Source of the DNA: a virus
Taxonomy: Duplodnaviria > Heunggongvirae > Uroviricota > Caudoviricetes
DNA length: 64,000 nt
Reading direction: 5' to 3' (one strand)
IMG/VR virus record: IMGVR_UViG_3300032304_000977
Location: 1-64,000 of that record
Part shown: positions 27,279-45,100 of the stretch, piece after piece
Layout: the number at the start of each line of letters is the position of its first letter
How positions within the stretch are numbered: the stretch's first letter is position 1
The notes under the pieces: generated by a model
Database searches by the model: none
What the model was told of the DNA's origin: nothing
What the model saw: only the letters and a program-made list of their open reading frames with translations
Made by a program: the position numbers and the translations under genes

Positions 27279-27782
27279 TTAAAGCTCCTCATTAGGAAAG
27301 GCATCTGTTGGTTCAAACACATATTCTCTCTTCGGTGTATAAGGGAAAACAATTGGCACAAAGGACGCAGATCCAGTGTAGTATGATTTGAAAGGTTTAC
27401 CATCCTCATCACTCATATACCAGTTCCAAAAAATTTTACCTTCTAGGTCATAGGGCTGACCATTGAATCGATCAGATTGTTTGAACACATGGCTGCAACG
27501 ATTGTTTTGAAACACACCATCACTCACTTCATTCCACTCAGAGTCTTCTCCTGTGAGTGGAATGATTGGTTCAAAGGAAGCCAACTTCTTGAACAAGTCG
27601 ATAGTATAAGGTGCAGTCGAACCCGAGTGACCCTTTTTCGAAAACATATTAATCAATTTTAGAACATGCTGACAAATCGCACCCTGCATCTCATCGCAGT
27701 ATGTACCATCCTCATTCAACCAACCAGCTACTTTAAATTCTCTCAATGCGTGTTTTTTTAAATTGCTCATGCTGTAATCCAA
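27279..27782 (-). CDS. hypothetical protein
   Basis: 167-aa ORF. Confidence 0.4.
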   Translation of the reverse strand: MDYSMSNLKKHALREFKVAGWLNEDGTYCDEMQGAICQHVLKLINMFSKKGHSGSTAPYTIDLFKKLASFEPIIPLTGEDSEWNEVSDGVFQNNRCSHVFKQSDRFNGQPYDLEGKIFWNWYMSDEDGKPFKSYYTGSASFVPIVFPYTPKREYVFEPTDAFPNEEL

Positions 27783-28811: not shown

Positions 28812-29062
28812 GAAAAATCCTTCAATCGTTTCATTCCCTTAGCAGGGACATGTACTACATAACGTGTATCGCCATTCATCTTTATCGGAAGATCGAGATG
28901 GCAAAGAATCATAGTAGAATCCTCATATTCTTCACGAATTACCATACCAATCACTGGAACCTTACCAACCTTACCTGAGATACGATCGCCATAGACCCAT
29001 GTAGGTGTAGGTTTATTCGCATCTCGCTTCTCAAAATAATCTTTAAGACTTGCCATAAACAC
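28808..29062 (-). CDS. small hypothetical protein
   Basis: 84 aa. Downstream of the consensus promoter at 29227-29255. Confidence 0.35.
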   Translation of the reverse strand: MFMASLKDYFEKRDANKPTPTWVYGDRISGKVGKVPVIGMVIREEYEDSTMILCHLDLPIKMNGDTRYVVHVPAKGMKRLKDFS

Positions 29063-29226
29063 CCCATTTCCTAATACAGAGAGTGATGATTAAACCTACC
29101 GTAAGTTCTACAGCAAATAAACCAAGAATTATCCATAGTATAATCATTGTAATCTCTTATATCGAATATACAAACCAATACATACCAAAATGAAAATGAA
29201 AGTCATTGTCTAATCCATCCTTCGTT

Positions 29227-29255
29227 AATTATACACGTGTCGCTGATTAATGTCA
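29227..29255 (-). promoter_or_regulatory. sigma70-type early promoter TTGACA-N17-TATAAT
   Basis: Minus strand: cTTGACAttaatcagcgacacgtgTATAAT. Confidence 0.6.
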
Positions 29256-29362
29256 AGAGATATGTCCGAAGTTCGAAAGGAAGAAGAAAAAGTCTCGGGG
29301 GACAAGCCGAAAGGGACCCGACCCGAAAAAAAAGGACCCGAATTTAATAGTCCATTTTTTGA

Positions 29363-29372
29363 CCCCCCCCCC
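29363..29372. repeat. homopolymeric C10 tract (G10 on the coding strand)
   Basis: gaCCCCCCCCCCttatgggg, within a locally GC-rich non-coding stretch that contains GACCCGA direct repeats (29300-29345). Confidence 0.7.
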
Positions 29373-29402
29373 TTATGGGGTGCTGAATGTCATTTAGTCT
29401 TC

Positions 29403-29579
29403 GTCACTCAGACTCATCATCCAGTACTGATTCTCCTGCTCTAGCCATTCCATGTATTCTTCATGTTCTTCTTGGTATAGCATAGCCACATACTCTTTTA
29501 CTCTTTCTTCTCTCTCTTGCTCAGCAATCTCTTGTAACAACGCATTCACATCATCCATGGTAGTAGTCATAGTGCTAGT
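29403..29579 (-). CDS. small highly acidic protein (58 aa, below track threshold)
   Basis: Minus-strand ORF MTTTMDDVNALLQEIAEQEREERVKEYVAMLYQEEHEEYMEWLEQENQYWMMSLSDED. About one third Asp/Glu. Coordinates approximate. Confidence 0.3.
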
Positions 29580-29740
29580 CCTTAGTCTTTCTCTTAGAAA
29601 CCTCTACATGGTTATTATACAGTTCTTCCTCATAGTTGTCAAATAAATCTCCGAACACATGTGATTCTTCGAATGTCTCTTCATCAGAGATCAACACATG
29701 CATGGGAACACCCAACAGGGAGGATGCATCAGCGAGGGTC
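29570..29740 (-). CDS. small acidic protein (about 56 aa, below track threshold)
   Basis: Minus-strand ORF MTLADASSLLGVPMHVLISDEETFEESHVFGDLFDNYEEELYNNHVEVSKRKTKD. Coordinates approximate. Confidence 0.25.
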
Positions 29741-29750
29741 ATAGTAGGCT

Positions 29751-29758
29751 CCCCCCCC
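29751..29758. repeat. homopolymeric C8 tract immediately 3' of the AAA ATPase stop codon
   Basis: ggctCCCCCCCCta followed by tta (stop on minus strand). Confidence 0.7.
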
Positions 29759-29760
29759 TA

Positions 29761-30693
29761 TTAAGCAGTCAACATATAAGTAGCCAGATCTTTCCACTCG
29801 GTGTTGGCAGCACGAACCTTGGACACAGAGATCAGCGTACGCAGGGAGATTTCTTTGCACTCATCTTTGATCTCACGGATCAGCGCCAGCGAGTCAGCGA
29901 TGATAGACTTATCGTACTCAGGGAGAAACTCATCAGACATAGCGATGTGCTCCATGCGCTCAATCTTCTGATCAGTTGTCATGCTCAGATCAATCATCAT
30001 TGAACGTGAGCGGATGGCTTGGTCAATCTTACCATCATCCATATTAGAGATGAAGATAATACGACCTTCAAAGTTGAAGCTCTTAGGCAGGTCTTCATCT
30101 TTGAAGTCAGCGTTCCAGGAAATGATGCGCTTACCGTAGCTGTCAAGAGCAGACTTCAGAATGTTCAGCGCAACTGGGTCTTTGAGAATGCTATCGCAGT
30201 CATCAAACACGATGATGCCTTTGTTGTTCTCAAACAAAGTGCGGTACAAACCCTTGGGAGTAGAGTAACCCTTGACCATGCGATAGCACTTGCGCATGTT
30301 CAGAATAGAACCAACAGCAAACTCACCGAGATCCGAGATGTCCTTCAGACCATTGCTCTCAAGTGTCTTGGTGACAGTGTAAGTCTTACCGAGACCACCT
30401 TCGCCAGTGATAATAGCGGAGGGCTGTACACCAGTCGCGACCATGTTCACCAACTTCTCAACAAAGCCGAAGCGAGTGTTAATGCCAAACTTGTCGGCTT
30501 TGGGTTCAGTCACGGGAGTGGTACCAACGATCTGAGCAAATGCCATTTTAGTACCAGTGATCTTCTTGTAGTGATATTCAACCACCTGTTCGAGACCAGC
30601 ACCAGTTTTGCCAGTCTTCACAATCTTGTCGCCAAGACGGATCTCAGATTTACCATCACGGAAGGTCTTCACAGAGACTTTAAGAGCATTCAT
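29761..30693 (-). CDS. AAA+/P-loop ATPase of unknown function (start trimmed to MNALKV)
   Basis: Track ORF 29761..30753 starts inside the -35 box. ATG at 30691-30693 has an AGGA RBS. Walker A GEGGLGKTY, Walker B IIVFDDCD, sensor-like IIFISNMD. Coding GC visibly higher than surrounding genes. Confidence 0.6.
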   Translation of the reverse strand: MNALKVSVKTFRDGKSEIRLGDKIVKTGKTGAGLEQVVEYHYKKITGTKMAFAQIVGTTPVTEPKADKFGINTRFGFVEKLVNMVATGVQPSAIITGEGGLGKTYTVTKTLESNGLKDISDLGEFAVGSILNMRKCYRMVKGYSTPKGLYRTLFENNKGIIVFDDCDSILKDPVALNILKSALDSYGKRIISWNADFKDEDLPKSFNFEGRIIFISNMDDGKIDQAIRSRSMMIDLSMTTDQKIERMEHIAMSDEFLPEYDKSIIADSLALIREIKDECKEISLRTLISVSKVRAANTEWKDLATYMLTA

Positions 30694-30724
30694 TTCAATT
30701 CCTTTTTTCATATTCAATAATAGA

Positions 30725-30753
30725 ATTATGCCTGAGAACCGAATTAATAGCAA
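30725..30753 (-). promoter_or_regulatory. sigma70-type early promoter TTGCTA-N17-CATAAT (variant)
   Basis: Minus strand: aTTGCTAttaattcggttctcaggCATAAT. Same conserved spacer TTAATTCGG as the other copies. Upstream of the AAA ATPase. Confidence 0.5.
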
Positions 30754-30758
30754 TAGAA

Positions 30759-30780
30759 AAACCCTACGTATAGTAGGGTT
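30759..30780. repeat. ACCCTAC-N5-GTAGGGT hairpin family, copy 4
   Basis: aaccctacGTATAgtagggtt adjacent to the promoter at 30725-30753. Confidence 0.6.
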
Positions 30781-32668: not shown

Positions 32669-32881
32669 CTATCGCTCCAATATTACATAATCGCCAAAGT
32701 ATTTATCAAAGGTAGTGATCAGATGTTCATAGTTGCCAGCTGTCATCTCATTTACAATTTCTGCACCATTCAGCTCCAGCTGTTTTGCTAGTTGCTTTGC
32801 TGTTCCCATCAAATAGAATGCGTTACCCTGTGGACCTGTGAGATCAATCACAGGGGTAGTGTTTTGTTTTTCACGAATCAT
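32669..32881 (-). CDS. small hypothetical protein
   Basis: 70-aa ORF. Confidence 0.3.
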   Translation of the reverse strand: MIREKQNTTPVIDLTGPQGNAFYLMGTAKQLAKQLELNGAEIVNEMTAGNYEHLITTFDKYFGDYVILER

Positions 32882-33329
32882 AGCTGGCTCCCAACACTCT
32901 CATCATCTTACTCTTTACTCTTAAGTTTGGTTGACGGTAGCGATCAGTGGGCGTAAATCCCATCATCGCTCCAATCTCAACCACTGCACCACTACGGCAG
33001 ATACCAGCATGGCAGTGCACTAGCACGTTCATACTTTTCTCCATAGCGTGGCTCAACAACATCACAAGTTCATTGGCTTGACTGTCGTTGATTTTAAAAT
33101 CATCATCAAATCCATCCTCGTCCTCTGCATCCAGAAACTCAAAGCAATGAACTTCTTTAAATTGTCGCTTGGTAGCTTTGAATTCAGTAGCAGGATCTTG
33201 AATGCGAATGAGCATGACATTCTCACCAAGATCACTATGATGACCAAGATGAATGTCTGCCATGCTACAGTTTTCAATCCAACGTATCACTTTACCACTC
33301 GCTTTCGTATTCTTCTTCGTAGGTTTCAC
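32871..33329 (-). CDS. protein tyrosine / dual-specificity phosphatase
   Basis: 152 aa with the CX5R catalytic loop VHCHAGICRSGAV (HCxxGxxRS). True start may be an internal Met. Confidence 0.6.
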   Translation of the reverse strand: MKPTKKNTKASGKVIRWIENCSMADIHLGHHSDLGENVMLIRIQDPATEFKATKRQFKEVHCFEFLDAEDEDGFDDDFKINDSQANELVMLLSHAMEKSMNVLVHCHAGICRSGAVVEIGAMMGFTPTDRYRQPNLRVKSKMMRVLGASYDS

Positions 33330-33510
33330 TCAAATCAATGATATCGCTGAGGTCGGTAGCACCCCTGCGGATATAACTGCGACCACCATCAGTAAAGATA
33401 GCACCACAACCACAACGTACAAAATCATGGCGATGTTTGCTTTCAATAACATCGCCACACTTTGCGCATTGACATTTGTTGACAACCACGACCTCACGTT
33501 TTCTAATCGG
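33292..33510 (-). CDS. zinc-binding protein (C-terminal part of track ORF 33292..33738)
   Basis: CQCAKCGD...HRHDFVRCGCGAIF cysteine/histidine cluster. The N-terminal half of the track ORF overlaps ORF 33515..33766 in another frame, so a start at MPIRKRE is proposed. Confidence 0.3.
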   Translation of the reverse strand, partial: PIRKREVVVVNKCQCAKCGDVIESKHRHDFVRCGCGAIFTDGGRSYIRRGATDLSDIIDLSETYEEEYESEW

Positions 33511-33514
33511 CATA

Positions 33515-33766
33515 TCATATCCAATCTTTCTTACCATCAAATTGCTCATTATATTCATAGCCAGCGAAATAAGCACGCAGTTCTGCCATTGACATTTCTG
33601 CTGACTCAATGCGCTTTCCGTGACCTGTTCCCTCAGGATACCAGTGTGGATCTTGTGGGCGACTATACCAGCTGTCAGCTGAACCTCGATCAAAGGGACT
33701 ACCATGTGTACGATCGAATGTTTGTCCACGATATTCAATTGTGTTGTTCATCTCTTCACTCATCAT
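33515..33766 (-). CDS. hypothetical protein
   Basis: 83-aa ORF. Competes with the 148-aa overlapping ORF. Confidence 0.3.
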   Translation of the reverse strand: MMSEEMNNTIEYRGQTFDRTHGSPFDRGSADSWYSRPQDPHWYPEGTGHGKRIESAEMSMAELRAYFAGYEYNEQFDGKKDWI

Positions 33767-34961: not shown

Positions 34962-35015
34962 TTCCTTTTCAATCATCATAAGATAATTATACGTCCAAAC
35001 CGAATTAATGTCAAG
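34962..35015. repeat. 54-bp exact direct repeat, copy B
   Basis: Identical to 22484-22537. Contains the RBS, -10, spacer and -35 of the promoter. Confidence 0.8.
34986..35014 (-). promoter_or_regulatory. sigma70-type early promoter TTGACA-N17-TATAAT
   Basis: Minus strand: cTTGACAttaattcggtttggacgTATAAT. Identical to the copy at 22508-22536 (part of the 54-bp repeat). Confidence 0.6.
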
Positions 35016-35352
35016 CGAATAACCCTACACGCTGTAGGGTCTTTTTGAACGTGTTCAGGGCTGGCTGCAGGTCGTTGATCAGCTGGGTTTCGTAAGCATG
35101 AGCATCTTTTTTGCCACGCACTACTGTGATCACCTGCGTATCCCAGTTTTCGTAGGTACGGATGGCTTCTGACAGTGCCCAGTCTTTGTCTTGACGATGA
35201 GCACGATATTGATGCTGTTGCCAGCGAGTCGCAAGGGTTTTAAGTTGGGCACGTCCACGCATCACTGTTACACCAATGTAGCTGTCGCCTGTGTCAAGAC
35301 AGGTCAGCTGGTATATCAGGTGGTTACGATCAGTTCGTTTTTTCCTATTCAT
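35011..35352 (-). CDS. GIY-YIG family nuclease (homing-endonuclease-like, catalytic domain only)
   Basis: Track ORF 35011..35388 starts with TTG inside the -35 box. Met13 at 35350-35352 is likelier. Motif HLIYQLTCLDTGDSYIGVT...R...RWQQH...YETQLIN fits GIY-YIG (GIY...YIG...R...H...E...N). Its stop codon lies inside the next promoter's -35. Confidence 0.55.
   Translation of the reverse strand: MNRKKRTDRNHLIYQLTCLDTGDSYIGVTVMRGRAQLKTLATRWQQHQYRAHRQDKDWALSEAIRTYENWDTQVITVVRGKKDAHAYETQLINDLQPALNTFKKTLQRVGLFA
35021..35041. repeat. ACCCTAC-N5-GTAGGGT hairpin family, copy 5
   Basis: aaccctacACGCTgtagggtc adjacent to the promoter at 34986-35014. Lies within the last codons of the GIY-YIG ORF. Confidence 0.6.
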
Positions 35353-35359
35353 ACAGTCT

Positions 35360-35388
35360 ATTATAGGGGAAAACCGAATTATTGTCAA
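35360..35388 (-). promoter_or_regulatory. sigma70-type early promoter TTGACA-N17-TATAAT
   Basis: Minus strand: cTTGACAataattcggttttccccTATAAT. Upstream of the GIY-YIG gene; would give a nearly leaderless transcript. Confidence 0.55.
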
Positions 35389-43738: not shown

Positions 43739-45100
43739 TTACATAATGTTCTGTACACGAACTCTACGGTAGTAGACGTTGTTATTTGAACCGATTGATG
43801 TTGCCAATGATGTTCCAGTTGCGAATGGGTTTGCGATCATGCCGTAGCGTGTCTTGAAACCAATCTTAGGCTGGAATGTATTTGGATCAACTGCGCGAAC
43901 CATTTGCAATGGAACGTATGGGCAATAGAAGATACCAGCGTCGAATGCGCTAGAACCTTTGTAACCAACTACATAGAATTGGTCATTTGCGCCACCATTA
44001 GATGCATATGGATCGATATAAACACGATAGCGTCCATTTAGAACACCAGCGAATGTGTTACCTGCGTCATCAACTTGTAAATTTGTTGACAATGCTGGAG
44101 TGTAGTCAAGAACGCCAGCCATTGCTAATGCAGATGCAACATCTGAAGAGCAAAGGATGAAGTTACCTTTTCCACGACGTGTTTCTTGTGCAATTACGTT
44201 AGCATCACGTTCGATTTGGAACAATAGACCCTTGAATTTCTCAACTGACCAACGTCCGTTAGCGTCTGTGTCTAAGTCAAACACACCAGCTGTTGTAACT
44301 GTACCAGATGCTGCACCGCTCTTAGCTGTGTAGTAAATTGTACGAACAACTTCACGATTGATTTCAGCAAGAATTTCTGTTGAAAGGATGTTGCTCAACT
44401 CTGACTCAGCGTCAAGACCATGAACTGCTTTCAAGTCTTGTGCCAATTCAATTGAGTACTCAGCCTTCAAAGCACGAGATCTAGCAGTTACGCTTGTCTT
44501 CTCGATTGAGAATGCCATTTCATTAAAAGATGTAGAACCTGGACCTGGATCAGATGCTGGAGATGCGCCTGTTGAAGAAGCAGAGTGACCACCTTCAGCT
44601 TGCTGAGTAGTCATACCACCAGCAGCGTTTACTGTGTTAAACCAGTTAGAACCAGAGATTGCTGTTTGGTTTGTGTTAGCACCTAAGTCTGCGCCTGAGA
44701 ACTCAGCATTTGCTTCGTTGTAGCCAGCTTCTGTACCACCTTGTGAACCATAACGTGCTTTCATAGCAAACACTAGACCTGTTGGACCTGTCATTGGCTG
44801 AACACCGCATAGATCGTAAGCGATCATTTGTGGAGCAGCACGACGTACCAAGTTGATCAAGATTGGATCATACTTAGCAACACCACCTGTGTCTGGGTTT
44901 GTTGATGAGCCATTATAGTTGGCGTTTGTTGGAACTGCTTCGAAAAGTGCAGAACGCTCTTCGCGCAATGCTTTTTCTTGGTTCTCTAAAAGAACCGCAG
45001 TACATTCTTTACGATATTGATCCTTGATTGGATCAAGACTTTCGTGCTCGAGCACTGGTGCCCATTTTTTCACTAAGTCTTCTCTTAACATTGTTGACAT
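43739..45100 (-). CDS. 23: major capsid protein gp23
   Basis: 453 aa. Position after the gp22 scaffold and before a strong rho-independent terminator. Composition typical of T4-like MCP. Confidence 0.8.
   Translation of the reverse strand: MSTMLREDLVKKWAPVLEHESLDPIKDQYRKECTAVLLENQEKALREERSALFEAVPTNANYNGSSTNPDTGGVAKYDPILINLVRRAAPQMIAYDLCGVQPMTGPTGLVFAMKARYGSQGGTEAGYNEANAEFSGADLGANTNQTAISGSNWFNTVNAAGGMTTQQAEGGHSASSTGASPASDPGPGSTSFNEMAFSIEKTSVTARSRALKAEYSIELAQDLKAVHGLDAESELSNILSTEILAEINREVVRTIYYTAKSGAASGTVTTAGVFDLDTDANGRWSVEKFKGLLFQIERDANVIAQETRRGKGNFILCSSDVASALAMAGVLDYTPALSTNLQVDDAGNTFAGVLNGRYRVYIDPYASNGGANDQFYVVGYKGSSAFDAGIFYCPYVPLQMVRAVDPNTFQPKIGFKTRYGMIANPFATGTSLATSIGSNNNVYYRRVRVQNIM

Follow-up and report, generated by a model that had tools for sequence, protein, structure and literature searches.

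Sense-strand G-rich motifs and biased codon usage at an AAA+ ATPase gene in the early region of an uncultured T4-like myovirus

The window analysed here comprises positions 1 to 64,000 of the viral record IMGVR_UViG_3300032304_000977. Its segment at 29,063 to 30,780 holds, on the minus strand, a gene for an AAA+ ATPase, two small acidic open reading frames (ORFs; orf55 and orf58), two long poly-G tracts and a GC-rich non-coding element. The unusual features proper are a system of G-rich motifs restricted to one zone downstream of the ATPase gene, and a conserved avoidance of A-ending codons in the gene itself. As a whole, the segment is probably, though well short of certainly, best explained as one autonomous early transcription unit, located in the hyperplastic early region of a T4-like myovirus that has not been cultured. 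In T4-type phages, promoter early stem-loops (PeSLs) combine a terminator stem-loop with an early promoter, lie in hyperplastic regions, flank ORFan cassettes and mediate shuffling (PMC2839356, PMC4122927). A canonical PeSL would drive the ATPase and the two small acidic ORFs as one unit, and the unit would end in an atypical PeSL-like element, in which a G tract and (C)GGGTC(C) repeats are followed by a weak, U-tailed hairpin and a consensus promoter. Its features, in the direction of transcription, are the following.

30760-30780, minus strand: stem-loop of the upstream PeSL, AACCCTAC-TATAC-GTAGGGTT followed by TTTTCT (terminator scan)
30725-30753, minus strand: early sigma-70-type promoter of the ATPase, TTGCTA-17-CATAAT, 9/12 consensus matches
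29761-30693, minus strand: AAA+ ATPase, 310 aa, T4 NrdC.10 family (phrog_1250), by profile and BLASTP matches
29751-29758, minus strand: poly-G tract 1, in the context TAA-TA-GGGGGGGG-AG-CCTACT-ATG
29575-29742, minus strand: orf55, small acidic lineage-specific ORF with 13 acidic and 4 basic residues
29614-29642, minus strand: consensus promoter TTGACA-17-TATAAT, within the 3' part of orf55 and upstream of orf58, 12/12 matches
29394-29570, minus strand: orf58, small and very acidic, 18 acidic and 3 basic residues
29363-29381, minus strand: poly-G tract 2 (C10 of the plus strand at 29363-29372), CACCCC-ATAA-G10, with a short complementary CCCC just upstream
29313-29345, minus strand: three (T)CGGGTC(C) copies, one of them GGGTCCC, with U8
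29293-29328, minus strand: terminator-like hairpin with a U-rich tail at 29283-29292 (terminator scan site 29312-29293)
29228-29256, minus strand: consensus early promoter TTGACATTAAT...TATAAT (TTGACA-17-TATAAT), 12/12 matches
29043-29147, minus strand: putative small membrane ORF, 34 aa, hydrophobic, right after the consensus promoter

A first-pass annotation, made from the sequence alone, had already pointed to the high GC content of the ATPase gene, the exact positions of the C8 and C10 tracts, the extreme acidity of the two tiny ORFs between them, the GACCCGA repeats with a poly-A run and the variant -35 box TTGCTA. All of these were borne out, as detailed below, whereas its view of the ATPase as an orphan was not.

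The G-rich zone downstream of the ATPase gene

The zone after the ATPase stop codon was surveyed in 61 non-redundant related loci, as the first 2 kb for G/C runs and the first 2.5 kb for other motifs. Across 78 kb of zone, 42 G runs of at least 6 nt were found on the sense strand together with a single C run, compared to two runs in the remaining 312 kb fetched, and G runs of this length were approximately 85 times more common in the 2 kb after the ATPase than elsewhere. GGGACTCC occurred 112 times in sense and 3 times in antisense orientation in the zone and twice in the rest of the fetched sequence. GGGTCCC was present 26 times in sense and never in antisense, and GGGGTAGGGG 28 times in sense and twice in antisense, with neither of the two found in the rest of the fetched sequence. 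GGGACTCC is really the 9-mer GGGACTCCT, with T at position 9 and without conserved flanks, and it is located both in intergenic arrays abutting promoters, with a 20-bp phase, and in coding sequences, in various frames. In four loci (L151, L154, L156 and L045), GGGACTCCT is found 8-12 times within 2-2.5 kb after the ATPase, in sense orientation only. The motif cluster keeps its position downstream of the ATPase in approximately 25 of 40 distinct loci.

Two candidate identities of these motifs were tried and rejected. GGGWCCC and GGASTCC were considered as palindromic dimer sites, but the strand bias argues against a symmetric site, GGGTCCC being found 26 times and GGGACCC not once. GGGACTCC as a -30 box or ribosome-binding element was dismissed on its lack of a conserved flank and of a fixed distance to an ATG, the T at position 9 being the only constant addition.

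Every long ORF of the window lies on the minus strand, and since all genes are on that strand, the plus-strand tracts C8 (29751-29758) and C10 (29363-29372) are G runs in the transcript. They are the sole C or G runs of at least 7 nt in the 64 kb; from base frequencies, by our own arithmetic, approximately 0.2 runs of C8 or longer and 0.01 runs of C10 or longer would be expected by chance. Tract 1 (G8) follows the ATPase stop codon (TAA at 29761-29763) after the dinucleotide TA and terminates in GGAG, 6 nt ahead of the orf55 ATG, and ribosome-binding sites throughout the phage are of the AGGAG or GGAG type. The tract would be a 5' extension of the GGAG Shine-Dalgarno (ribosome-binding) site of orf55; at the same position, some relatives have a plain Shine-Dalgarno sequence (TAATAGGAG...) and others G6-G9. 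The counterpart of tract 2 in relatives is G5-6-TA-G4, located where the last small gene stops or shortly beyond, and colinear elements at the same place read CACCCCATA-G12-TCAAAA... in L148 and G6-TAGGGG in L013. Tract 2 is probably a derived, uninterrupted form of this conserved G5-6-TA-G4 motif, which would open the operon-end element.

The window phage is contained in at least nine metagenome assemblies, with a longest contig of 151,879 bp. Tract lengths were compared in nine assemblies from JGI, ENA and Logan, which stem from different samples and pipelines and are 99-100% identical over 2-5 kb. Tract 1 was G7 or G8, tract 2 was G8, G10, G11 or G12, and one repeat had C2 or C3; in addition, all three indels in the 1130 bp that separate the near-identical loci L001 and L002 fall inside G tracts. 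The tracts are thus polymorphic in length, and since nine assemblies carry them, they are real and an outright artefact is excluded. The length change of tract 1 falls on its 5' side and leaves the GGAG-ATG spacing unaffected. In two assemblies of the window phage (L439 1690-1720 and L442 1776-1806), the junction reads TAAT-G8 instead of TAATA-G8, which creates an in-frame ATG and leads gene callers to lengthen orf55 from 55 to 61 aa. Neither tract lies within a minus-strand ORF or a -35/-10 spacer, which leaves no architecture for a frameshift-type switch, and the only ORF crossing C10 is a plus-strand one that is frameshifted in other assemblies. The tracts are probably slippage-prone expansions of sense-strand G-rich intercistronic signals, and their lengths would be free to change since translation does not pass through them in frame.

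Similar motifs were also encountered away from the ATPase. When viral contigs were scanned for the patterns CGGGTCCC-N-CGGGTCCC and GGGACTCC-N-GGGACTCC, the matches listed were mostly unrelated or high-GC sequences. Seven low-GC phage contigs (L412, L378, L414, L357, L369, L415 and L377) have similar arrays 6-9 nt upstream of TATAAT-like boxes, and no ATPase homologue is present in them within the DNA fetched. In an unrelated, abundant phage family with a GC content of approximately 0.51 (L065, L079, L086, L091, L033 and about 50 similar loci), the sequence GGGGG(G)TAGGGGT(T/C)(G/A)AAAA lies approximately 30 nt upstream of the large-terminase gene. It is intergenic, beside a small upstream gene, and present in two copies in L091, and a 12-mer of it is identical to that in the element downstream of the ATPase. 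Finally, L040/L047, L046, L141/L143 and L055 have no proteins in common with the window, yet the same motif order recurs in a long intergenic region: beside AAAATTTT-type runs, G6 and GGGGGTAGGGG are followed 66-72 nt later by GGGACTCC or GGAGTCCC and then by a second G cluster.

Family, fold and codon usage of the ATPase

A profile search matched the ATPase to the AAA+ family phrog_1250 over residues 56-308 (E 9.4e-62), and BLASTP aligned it with T4 NrdC.10 at 27% identity over 257 residues (E 5e-23), while T4 NrdC.11 gave no BLASTP match. Judged by these similarities, the protein is a member of the phrog_1250/NrdC.10 family and not an orphan. It shares with T4 NrdC.10 approximately 250 homologous residues, both Walker motifs, a similar size and a location among small uncharacterised genes. 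T4 NrdC.10 itself has long been recorded as a weak AAA match (PMC1524935). The 1304 phage records with translated matches to the ATPase include many T4-like coliphages, and the best matches from cultured phages have 28-51% identity. More than 6700 metagenomic proteins matched at E <= 1e-10, many at 70-87% identity, and an exhaustive metagenomic search returned 3483 cluster representatives.

Among 40-41 homologues of 26-61% identity, G100, G102 and K103 of the Walker A motif (GxxGxGK[ST]; GGLGKT in the window protein) and D164 and D165 of the Walker B motif (hhhhD[DE]; VFDDCD) are invariant. An AlphaFold2 model (predicted local distance difference test score 90.7, predicted template modelling score 0.79) shows an alpha/beta ATPase core with a helical lid behind it at the C-terminus, and by its Walker motifs and this predicted fold the protein belongs to the AAA+ class. 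Searching with the model gave 422 PDB matches at E <= 0.001 with low template modelling (TM) scores of 0.3-0.5. The top matches listed were all AAA+ proteins (dynein modules, Msp1, ORC4, NorQ, Bcs1, Vps4 and RFC), a generic AAA+ result that indicates no specific AAA+ clade. The Pfam AAA match was below the cut-off (18.9 vs 21.2 bits), PDB sequence searches with the single sequence and with a profile gave matches at the P-loop level only, and NCBIfam and PADLOC held nothing meaningful for the ATPase, orf55 or orf58.

The coding sequence has a GC content of 0.467, compared to 0.379 for the window. Sliding 933-bp windows peak over the gene at 0.479, the maximum of the whole 64 kb, and just 4 of 1262 such windows reach the gene's own GC. 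The GC content at third codon positions (GC3) is 0.551, the highest among 65 minus-strand ORFs (mean 0.313, sd 0.068), while first and second positions (GC1 and GC2) are ordinary. The frequency of A at third positions (A3) is 0.08, against approximately 0.30 in structural and replication genes, and the codons CTA, TTA, AGA, CGA, GGA and ATA are not used at all. T4 nrdC.10, in contrast, has ordinary T4 composition (A3 0.26, GC 0.37), and it is not known to adjoin poly-G tracts. Two further features bear on this pattern.

43739-45100, minus strand: major capsid gene, preferring A-ending codons (ACA 0.82, CCA 0.94, GCA 0.52)
30019-30720, plus strand: antisense ORF of 233 aa, inside the ATPase gene

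The effective number of codons is 39 for the ATPase and 38 for the capsid gene, meaning that the two are equally biased but in opposite directions, which suggests separate early and late codon regimes. Other ORFs of the early region display the same A3 tendency as the ATPase, though more weakly. The antisense ORF was rejected as an overlapping gene: it is a codon-aligned shadow frame with 0-9 stops in relatives, and it stands open because the ATPase gene has no TTA or CTA codons and few TCA codons, these being the sense-strand equivalents of its stops.

The depletion of A3 is a property of the clade rather than of the window. In 34 of 34 distinct full-length relatives, taken from loci that were collected by way of the gene itself so that true absences lie outside the sample, A3 of the ATPase is 0.09-0.16, compared to 0.21-0.33 in the flanks, and in the clade of L011, L164 and L165 it is depleted though GC3 (0.31) equals that of the flanks. 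The ATPase gene is conserved among relatives together with its PeSL and 5' leader, at 66-100% identity. Since the depletion is kept over 66-100% protein identity and is decoupled from GC, the composition points to selection and not to recent transfer. The ATPase is presumably an abundantly or very early expressed gene that is tuned to host-type codons and the host tRNA pool, with late genes using A-ending codons instead.

Promoters, operon-end element and the early region

Seventeen promoter-pattern matches were found on the minus strand of the window (for example at 35388, 35014, 26225, 22536 and 13569): fourteen TTGACA-N16-18-TATAAT, two with CATAAT, and the single TTGCTA...CATAAT of the ATPase. 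The family has the form TTGACATTAATTCGGTTT...(T/C)ATAAT, TTGACATTAATTCGGTTT being common to many members, and a CCCT(T)AC-N5-6-GTAGGG hairpin stands ahead of 6 of the 17. This is a dense family of PeSLs in a phage distant from the coliphages in which these elements were described.

The hairpin upstream of the ATPase (-13 kcal/mol, z = -4.4, equalled by none of 200 shuffles) would be a terminator or attenuator of upstream transcription. The promoter behind it, TTGCTA-17-CATAAT at 30753-30725, corresponds at the same position in relatives to combinations of TTTACA, TTGCTA or TTGACG with TATAAT or CATAAT, and the composite of hairpin and promoter, followed by a conserved leader, precedes the ATPase in all relatives. 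With its stable stem-loop, sigma-70-like early promoter, intergenic location and repeated occurrence, the upstream element (30725-30780) is, by its sequence, a PeSL. It reads as a textbook case of those described by Arbiol, Comeau & Krisch 2010 (PMC2839356) and Comeau et al. 2014 (PMC4122927), in which a terminating stem-loop is coupled to a consensus sigma-70 early promoter between ORFs of a hyperplastic region, in many repeats that flank small ORFan cassettes.

On the 3' side of the ATPase, the order is G8, orf55, the promoter at 29642-29614, orf58, the non-coding element and the promoter at 29256-29228, and the genes flanking the conserved ATPase vary among relatives. orf55 had no match in Pfam, PHROG, NCBIfam or PADLOC; its N-terminus resembles that of a small ORF which likewise follows a G tract in L001 and L002. 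orf58 occupies the position held in relatives by the acidic 'LDTMW' protein family F0. The promoter at 29228-29256 heads the next unit, to which the small ORF at 29043-29147 and orf84 belong. The former is conserved at 53-75% identity in L013, L192, L187 and L019, and is therefore probably a real small membrane protein.

The downstream element (29228-29385) includes this consensus sigma-70 early promoter, and its patch at 29280-29380 has a GC content of 0.505. G10 is followed by A6, then by three (T)CGGGTC(C) copies that surround U8, and finally by the weak hairpin with its U-rich tail and the promoter. On the plus strand, the repeats read GACCCGA at 29315-21, 29320-26 and 29335-41, with A8 at 29326-33. 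GGGTCC and CGGGTC are almost unique to 29313-29345 in the 64 kb, and in the same place relatives carry TTCGGGTCCC-N8-12-CTCGGGTCCC. The stem-loops of published PeSLs often hold polyG and then polyC (PMC2839356), which is why we read the downstream element as an atypical, expanded PeSL. Its hairpin contains C5 at 29297-29301 on the transcript, and G10 and C5 pair in the minimum free energy structure, though with z-scores of only -0.6 to -1.25. It departs from the PeSL type in several respects. The G run (8-12) and C5 are approximately 60 nt apart, with the (C)GGGTC(C) repeats between them and no significant folding, and its motif set (poly-G, GGGGTAGGGG, GGGTCCC and GGGACTCCT) is limited to one 2-2.5 kb zone instead of being found at all PeSLs. 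Moreover, other PeSLs in the window have CCCTAC...GTAGGG stems, unlike this element.

Searches for a structured RNA were largely negative. Rfam, queried with the window, the segment and eight related or look-alike loci, gave nothing at the gathering threshold and chance-level E-values only. RNAalifold on 13 related elements returned a consensus of -5.5 kcal/mol with one compensatory pair, a minimal covariation signal, and pairs UAGGGG with CUCCUA. No canonical G-quadruplex (four G3+ tracts with short loops) exists on either strand of the window, and the C10 region has the window's top G4Hunter score (-1.72) from the homopolymer alone.

By its core genes (gp43-type DNA polymerase, gp46-like nuclease subunit, helicase, major head protein, portal, sheath and large terminase), the window phage is a T4-like myovirus. 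Its major capsid protein is 62-65% identical to those of the nearest cultured relatives, namely Methylophilales phage Melnitz, Pelagibacter phage Mosig and cyanomyoviruses. When cultured phages were searched for DNA nearly identical to the segment, no match was obtained, and no tRNA genes were found in the 64-kb window. Four further ORFs characterise the surroundings of the ATPase.

27279-27782, minus strand: Tad3 ORF, a type I Thoeris inhibitor by its match to Pfam Tad3 (E 6.6e-36), which passes the curated cut-off
32871-33329, minus strand: dual-specificity-phosphatase-like ORF
33292-33705, minus strand: DUF7695 ORF
35011-35352, minus strand: GIY-YIG endonuclease-like ORF

The Tad3 anti-defence gene is located 2 kb downstream of the ATPase, within the same early region. 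With a GC3 of 0.50, the GIY-YIG endonuclease-like ORF (E 6.9e-07) ranks second in the window, and GC3 is raised in the dual-specificity-phosphatase-like and DUF7695 ORFs too, the early block at 31-35 kb being shifted in composition throughout. Taken together, the Thoeris inhibitor, the GIY-YIG endonuclease and the phosphatase-like protein near the ATPase are in keeping with an early host-takeover region.

Alternative readings and implications

Several points weigh against the PeSL-bounded transcription unit that we favour. PeSL and ribosome-binding roles do not explain the approximately 85-fold enrichment of G runs after the ATPase, and they leave unaccounted for the confinement of GGGACTCC(T), GGGTCCC and GGGGTAGGGG to one zone and to the sense strand, even within coding sequences. 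The downstream hairpin is weak (-14.9 kcal/mol, z = -1.25) and not significant alone, and the whole element folds as RNA no better than shuffled sequences (z = +0.9 and -0.6). The ATPase promoter is the weakest of its family (9/12), which is hard to square with very high expression. Lastly, the variation in tract length could partly be homopolymer sequencing or assembly error. The zone might be an origin or an array bound by protein, a device that acts at the RNA level, either by blocking exonucleases or by anti-Shine-Dalgarno pairing, or a recombination footprint. It is conceivable, though doubtful, that the zone represents a strand-specific cis-acting motif system not described before (poly-G, GGGGTAGGGG, GGGTCCC and GGGACTCCT), with the window tracts and (C)GGGTC(C) repeats as its local form. 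Such a system might serve as a replication origin of the R-loop or iteron type, or as a regulon or decoy at the RNA level, with a functional tie to the ATPase and to the small acidic and helix-turn-helix-like proteins encoded in the zone.

We regard it as rather unlikely that the sense-strand tracts and motifs act in RNA, where poly(G) or G-quadruplex-like structures right behind cistrons would block exonucleases and stabilise the ATPase message, or where pairing between the G-rich and the CUCC(U)-containing motifs would control translation, or a specific factor would cut or bind them. Poly(G) exonuclease blocks are an established experimental tool, and a simple block would fit the tolerance of length change. 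The tracts lie 0-55 nt past stop codons, the UAGGGG-CUCCUA pairing is recovered by RNAalifold, and GGGACUCCU includes an anti-Shine-Dalgarno-like CUCCU. The near-absolute strand bias (42 G vs 1 C runs; 112:3; 26:0; 28:2) is in line with this but unspecific, because all window genes are on one strand and any transcription or translation signal would be biased alike. The weak consensus structure with its single compensatory pair, the non-significant folding z-scores and the lack of a canonical G-quadruplex motif or Rfam family speak against it. Of the structured RNA or G-tract element suggested in the first-pass annotation, the structure is thus not supported, the folding energies being no better than those of shuffles, while a G-tract role in RNA or an R-loop is kept as a candidate. 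A dedicated cis-acting DNA site, either a replication origin or an array bound by phage protein, with R-loops or with iterons beside A/T runs at which the ATPase or the small ORFs act, is in our view unlikely. R-loop or iteron origins include T4 oriF, oriG and oriE, the G run of ColE1 RNA II and mitochondrial CSBII, and oriE is described as an iteron-bearing origin with small early Rep genes. In the window, too, a G run occupies the non-template strand past a strong promoter, and direct repeats, A/T runs and small early genes are close by, though this is a resemblance only. The motif cluster is unique in the 64 kb and positionally kept in relatives, G runs lie without exception on the non-template strand and past consensus promoters, the element contains A6 and U8 runs, and fold matches of the ATPase include ORC, RFC and MoxR-type proteins. 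Some relatives have up to six GGGACTCC copies at 20-bp spacing, abutting the promoter -35. The window, however, has just three repeats with irregular spacing, the fold matches are generic AAA+ at TM scores of 0.3-0.5, and GGGACTCC arrays also occur in the phage contigs without an ATPase homologue in the DNA fetched. The strict strand bias, with T and never A at the GGGWCCC centre (26:0), is also unexpected for a symmetric double-strand site.

The remaining alternatives concern the tracts and the ATPase cassette. That the tracts are contingency loci, in which slipped-strand length change switches or tunes neighbouring genes as a form of bet-hedging, appears quite unlikely. PolyG tracts of Campylobacter phages are reportedly hypermutable, tract lengths here differ among genomes that are 99-100% identical, and the TAAT-G8 variant extends orf55 through its upstream ATG. 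A recent study described contingency loci in T2 and T4, and as with these coding repeats, homopolymers of 7-12 nt in the present phage vary between near-identical genomes; the phage contingency loci of that study, however, act via reversible frameshift mutations (PMC12633550). Known phage contingency loci lie inside coding sequences, whereas the window tracts are intergenic and interrupt nothing, tract 1 grows 5'-ward at constant GGAG-ATG spacing, and C10 is crossed solely by the frameshifted plus-strand ORF. Hence, of the slipped-strand switch once proposed for this segment, the length variation stands and the switch does not. Recent acquisition of the cassette from a GC-richer donor, still unameliorated, is very unlikely. 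It would fit the window's highest GC and GC3, the codon usage opposite to that of the capsid gene, the recombinogenic PeSLs on both sides, the variable flanking genes of the hyperplastic region and the raised GC3 of nearby 31-35 kb genes, including the GIY-YIG endonuclease. It is largely refuted by the A3 depletion in every relative, even where GC3 equals the genome; in addition, gene, PeSL and 5' leader are conserved among relatives, and with best cultured-phage matches of 28-51% identity, no donor is identifiable. The suggestion of a laterally acquired cassette holds in the PeSL sense but not as a recent acquisition, for the segment's ATPase is present in relatives and its codon bias is shared by all rather than foreign. 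As for the first-pass caveat that the tracts might be sequencing or assembly artefacts, homopolymer lengths are error-prone and do differ between assemblies, but nine assemblies that differ in sample and pipeline (JGI, ENA, Logan) agree in where the tracts lie, and dozens of related phages have tracts at the homologous sites, which makes this hardly credible.

The results indicate that a GC-rich phage gene need not be foreign, the signal here being a gene-specific and clade-wide avoidance of A-ending codons, and the codon contrast between the ATPase and the capsid gene suggests that early and late genes are under different translational regimes. The pattern of G-rich motifs and variable poly-G tracts in one zone and on one strand is reproducible and statistically extreme across the 61 loci, and it is not covered by current descriptions of T4-type PeSLs. 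Should the zone turn out to be an origin, an array that binds a regulator or a device working at the RNA level, this would open a first way into the function of the widespread NrdC.10 ATPase family and into the organisation of early hyperplastic regions.

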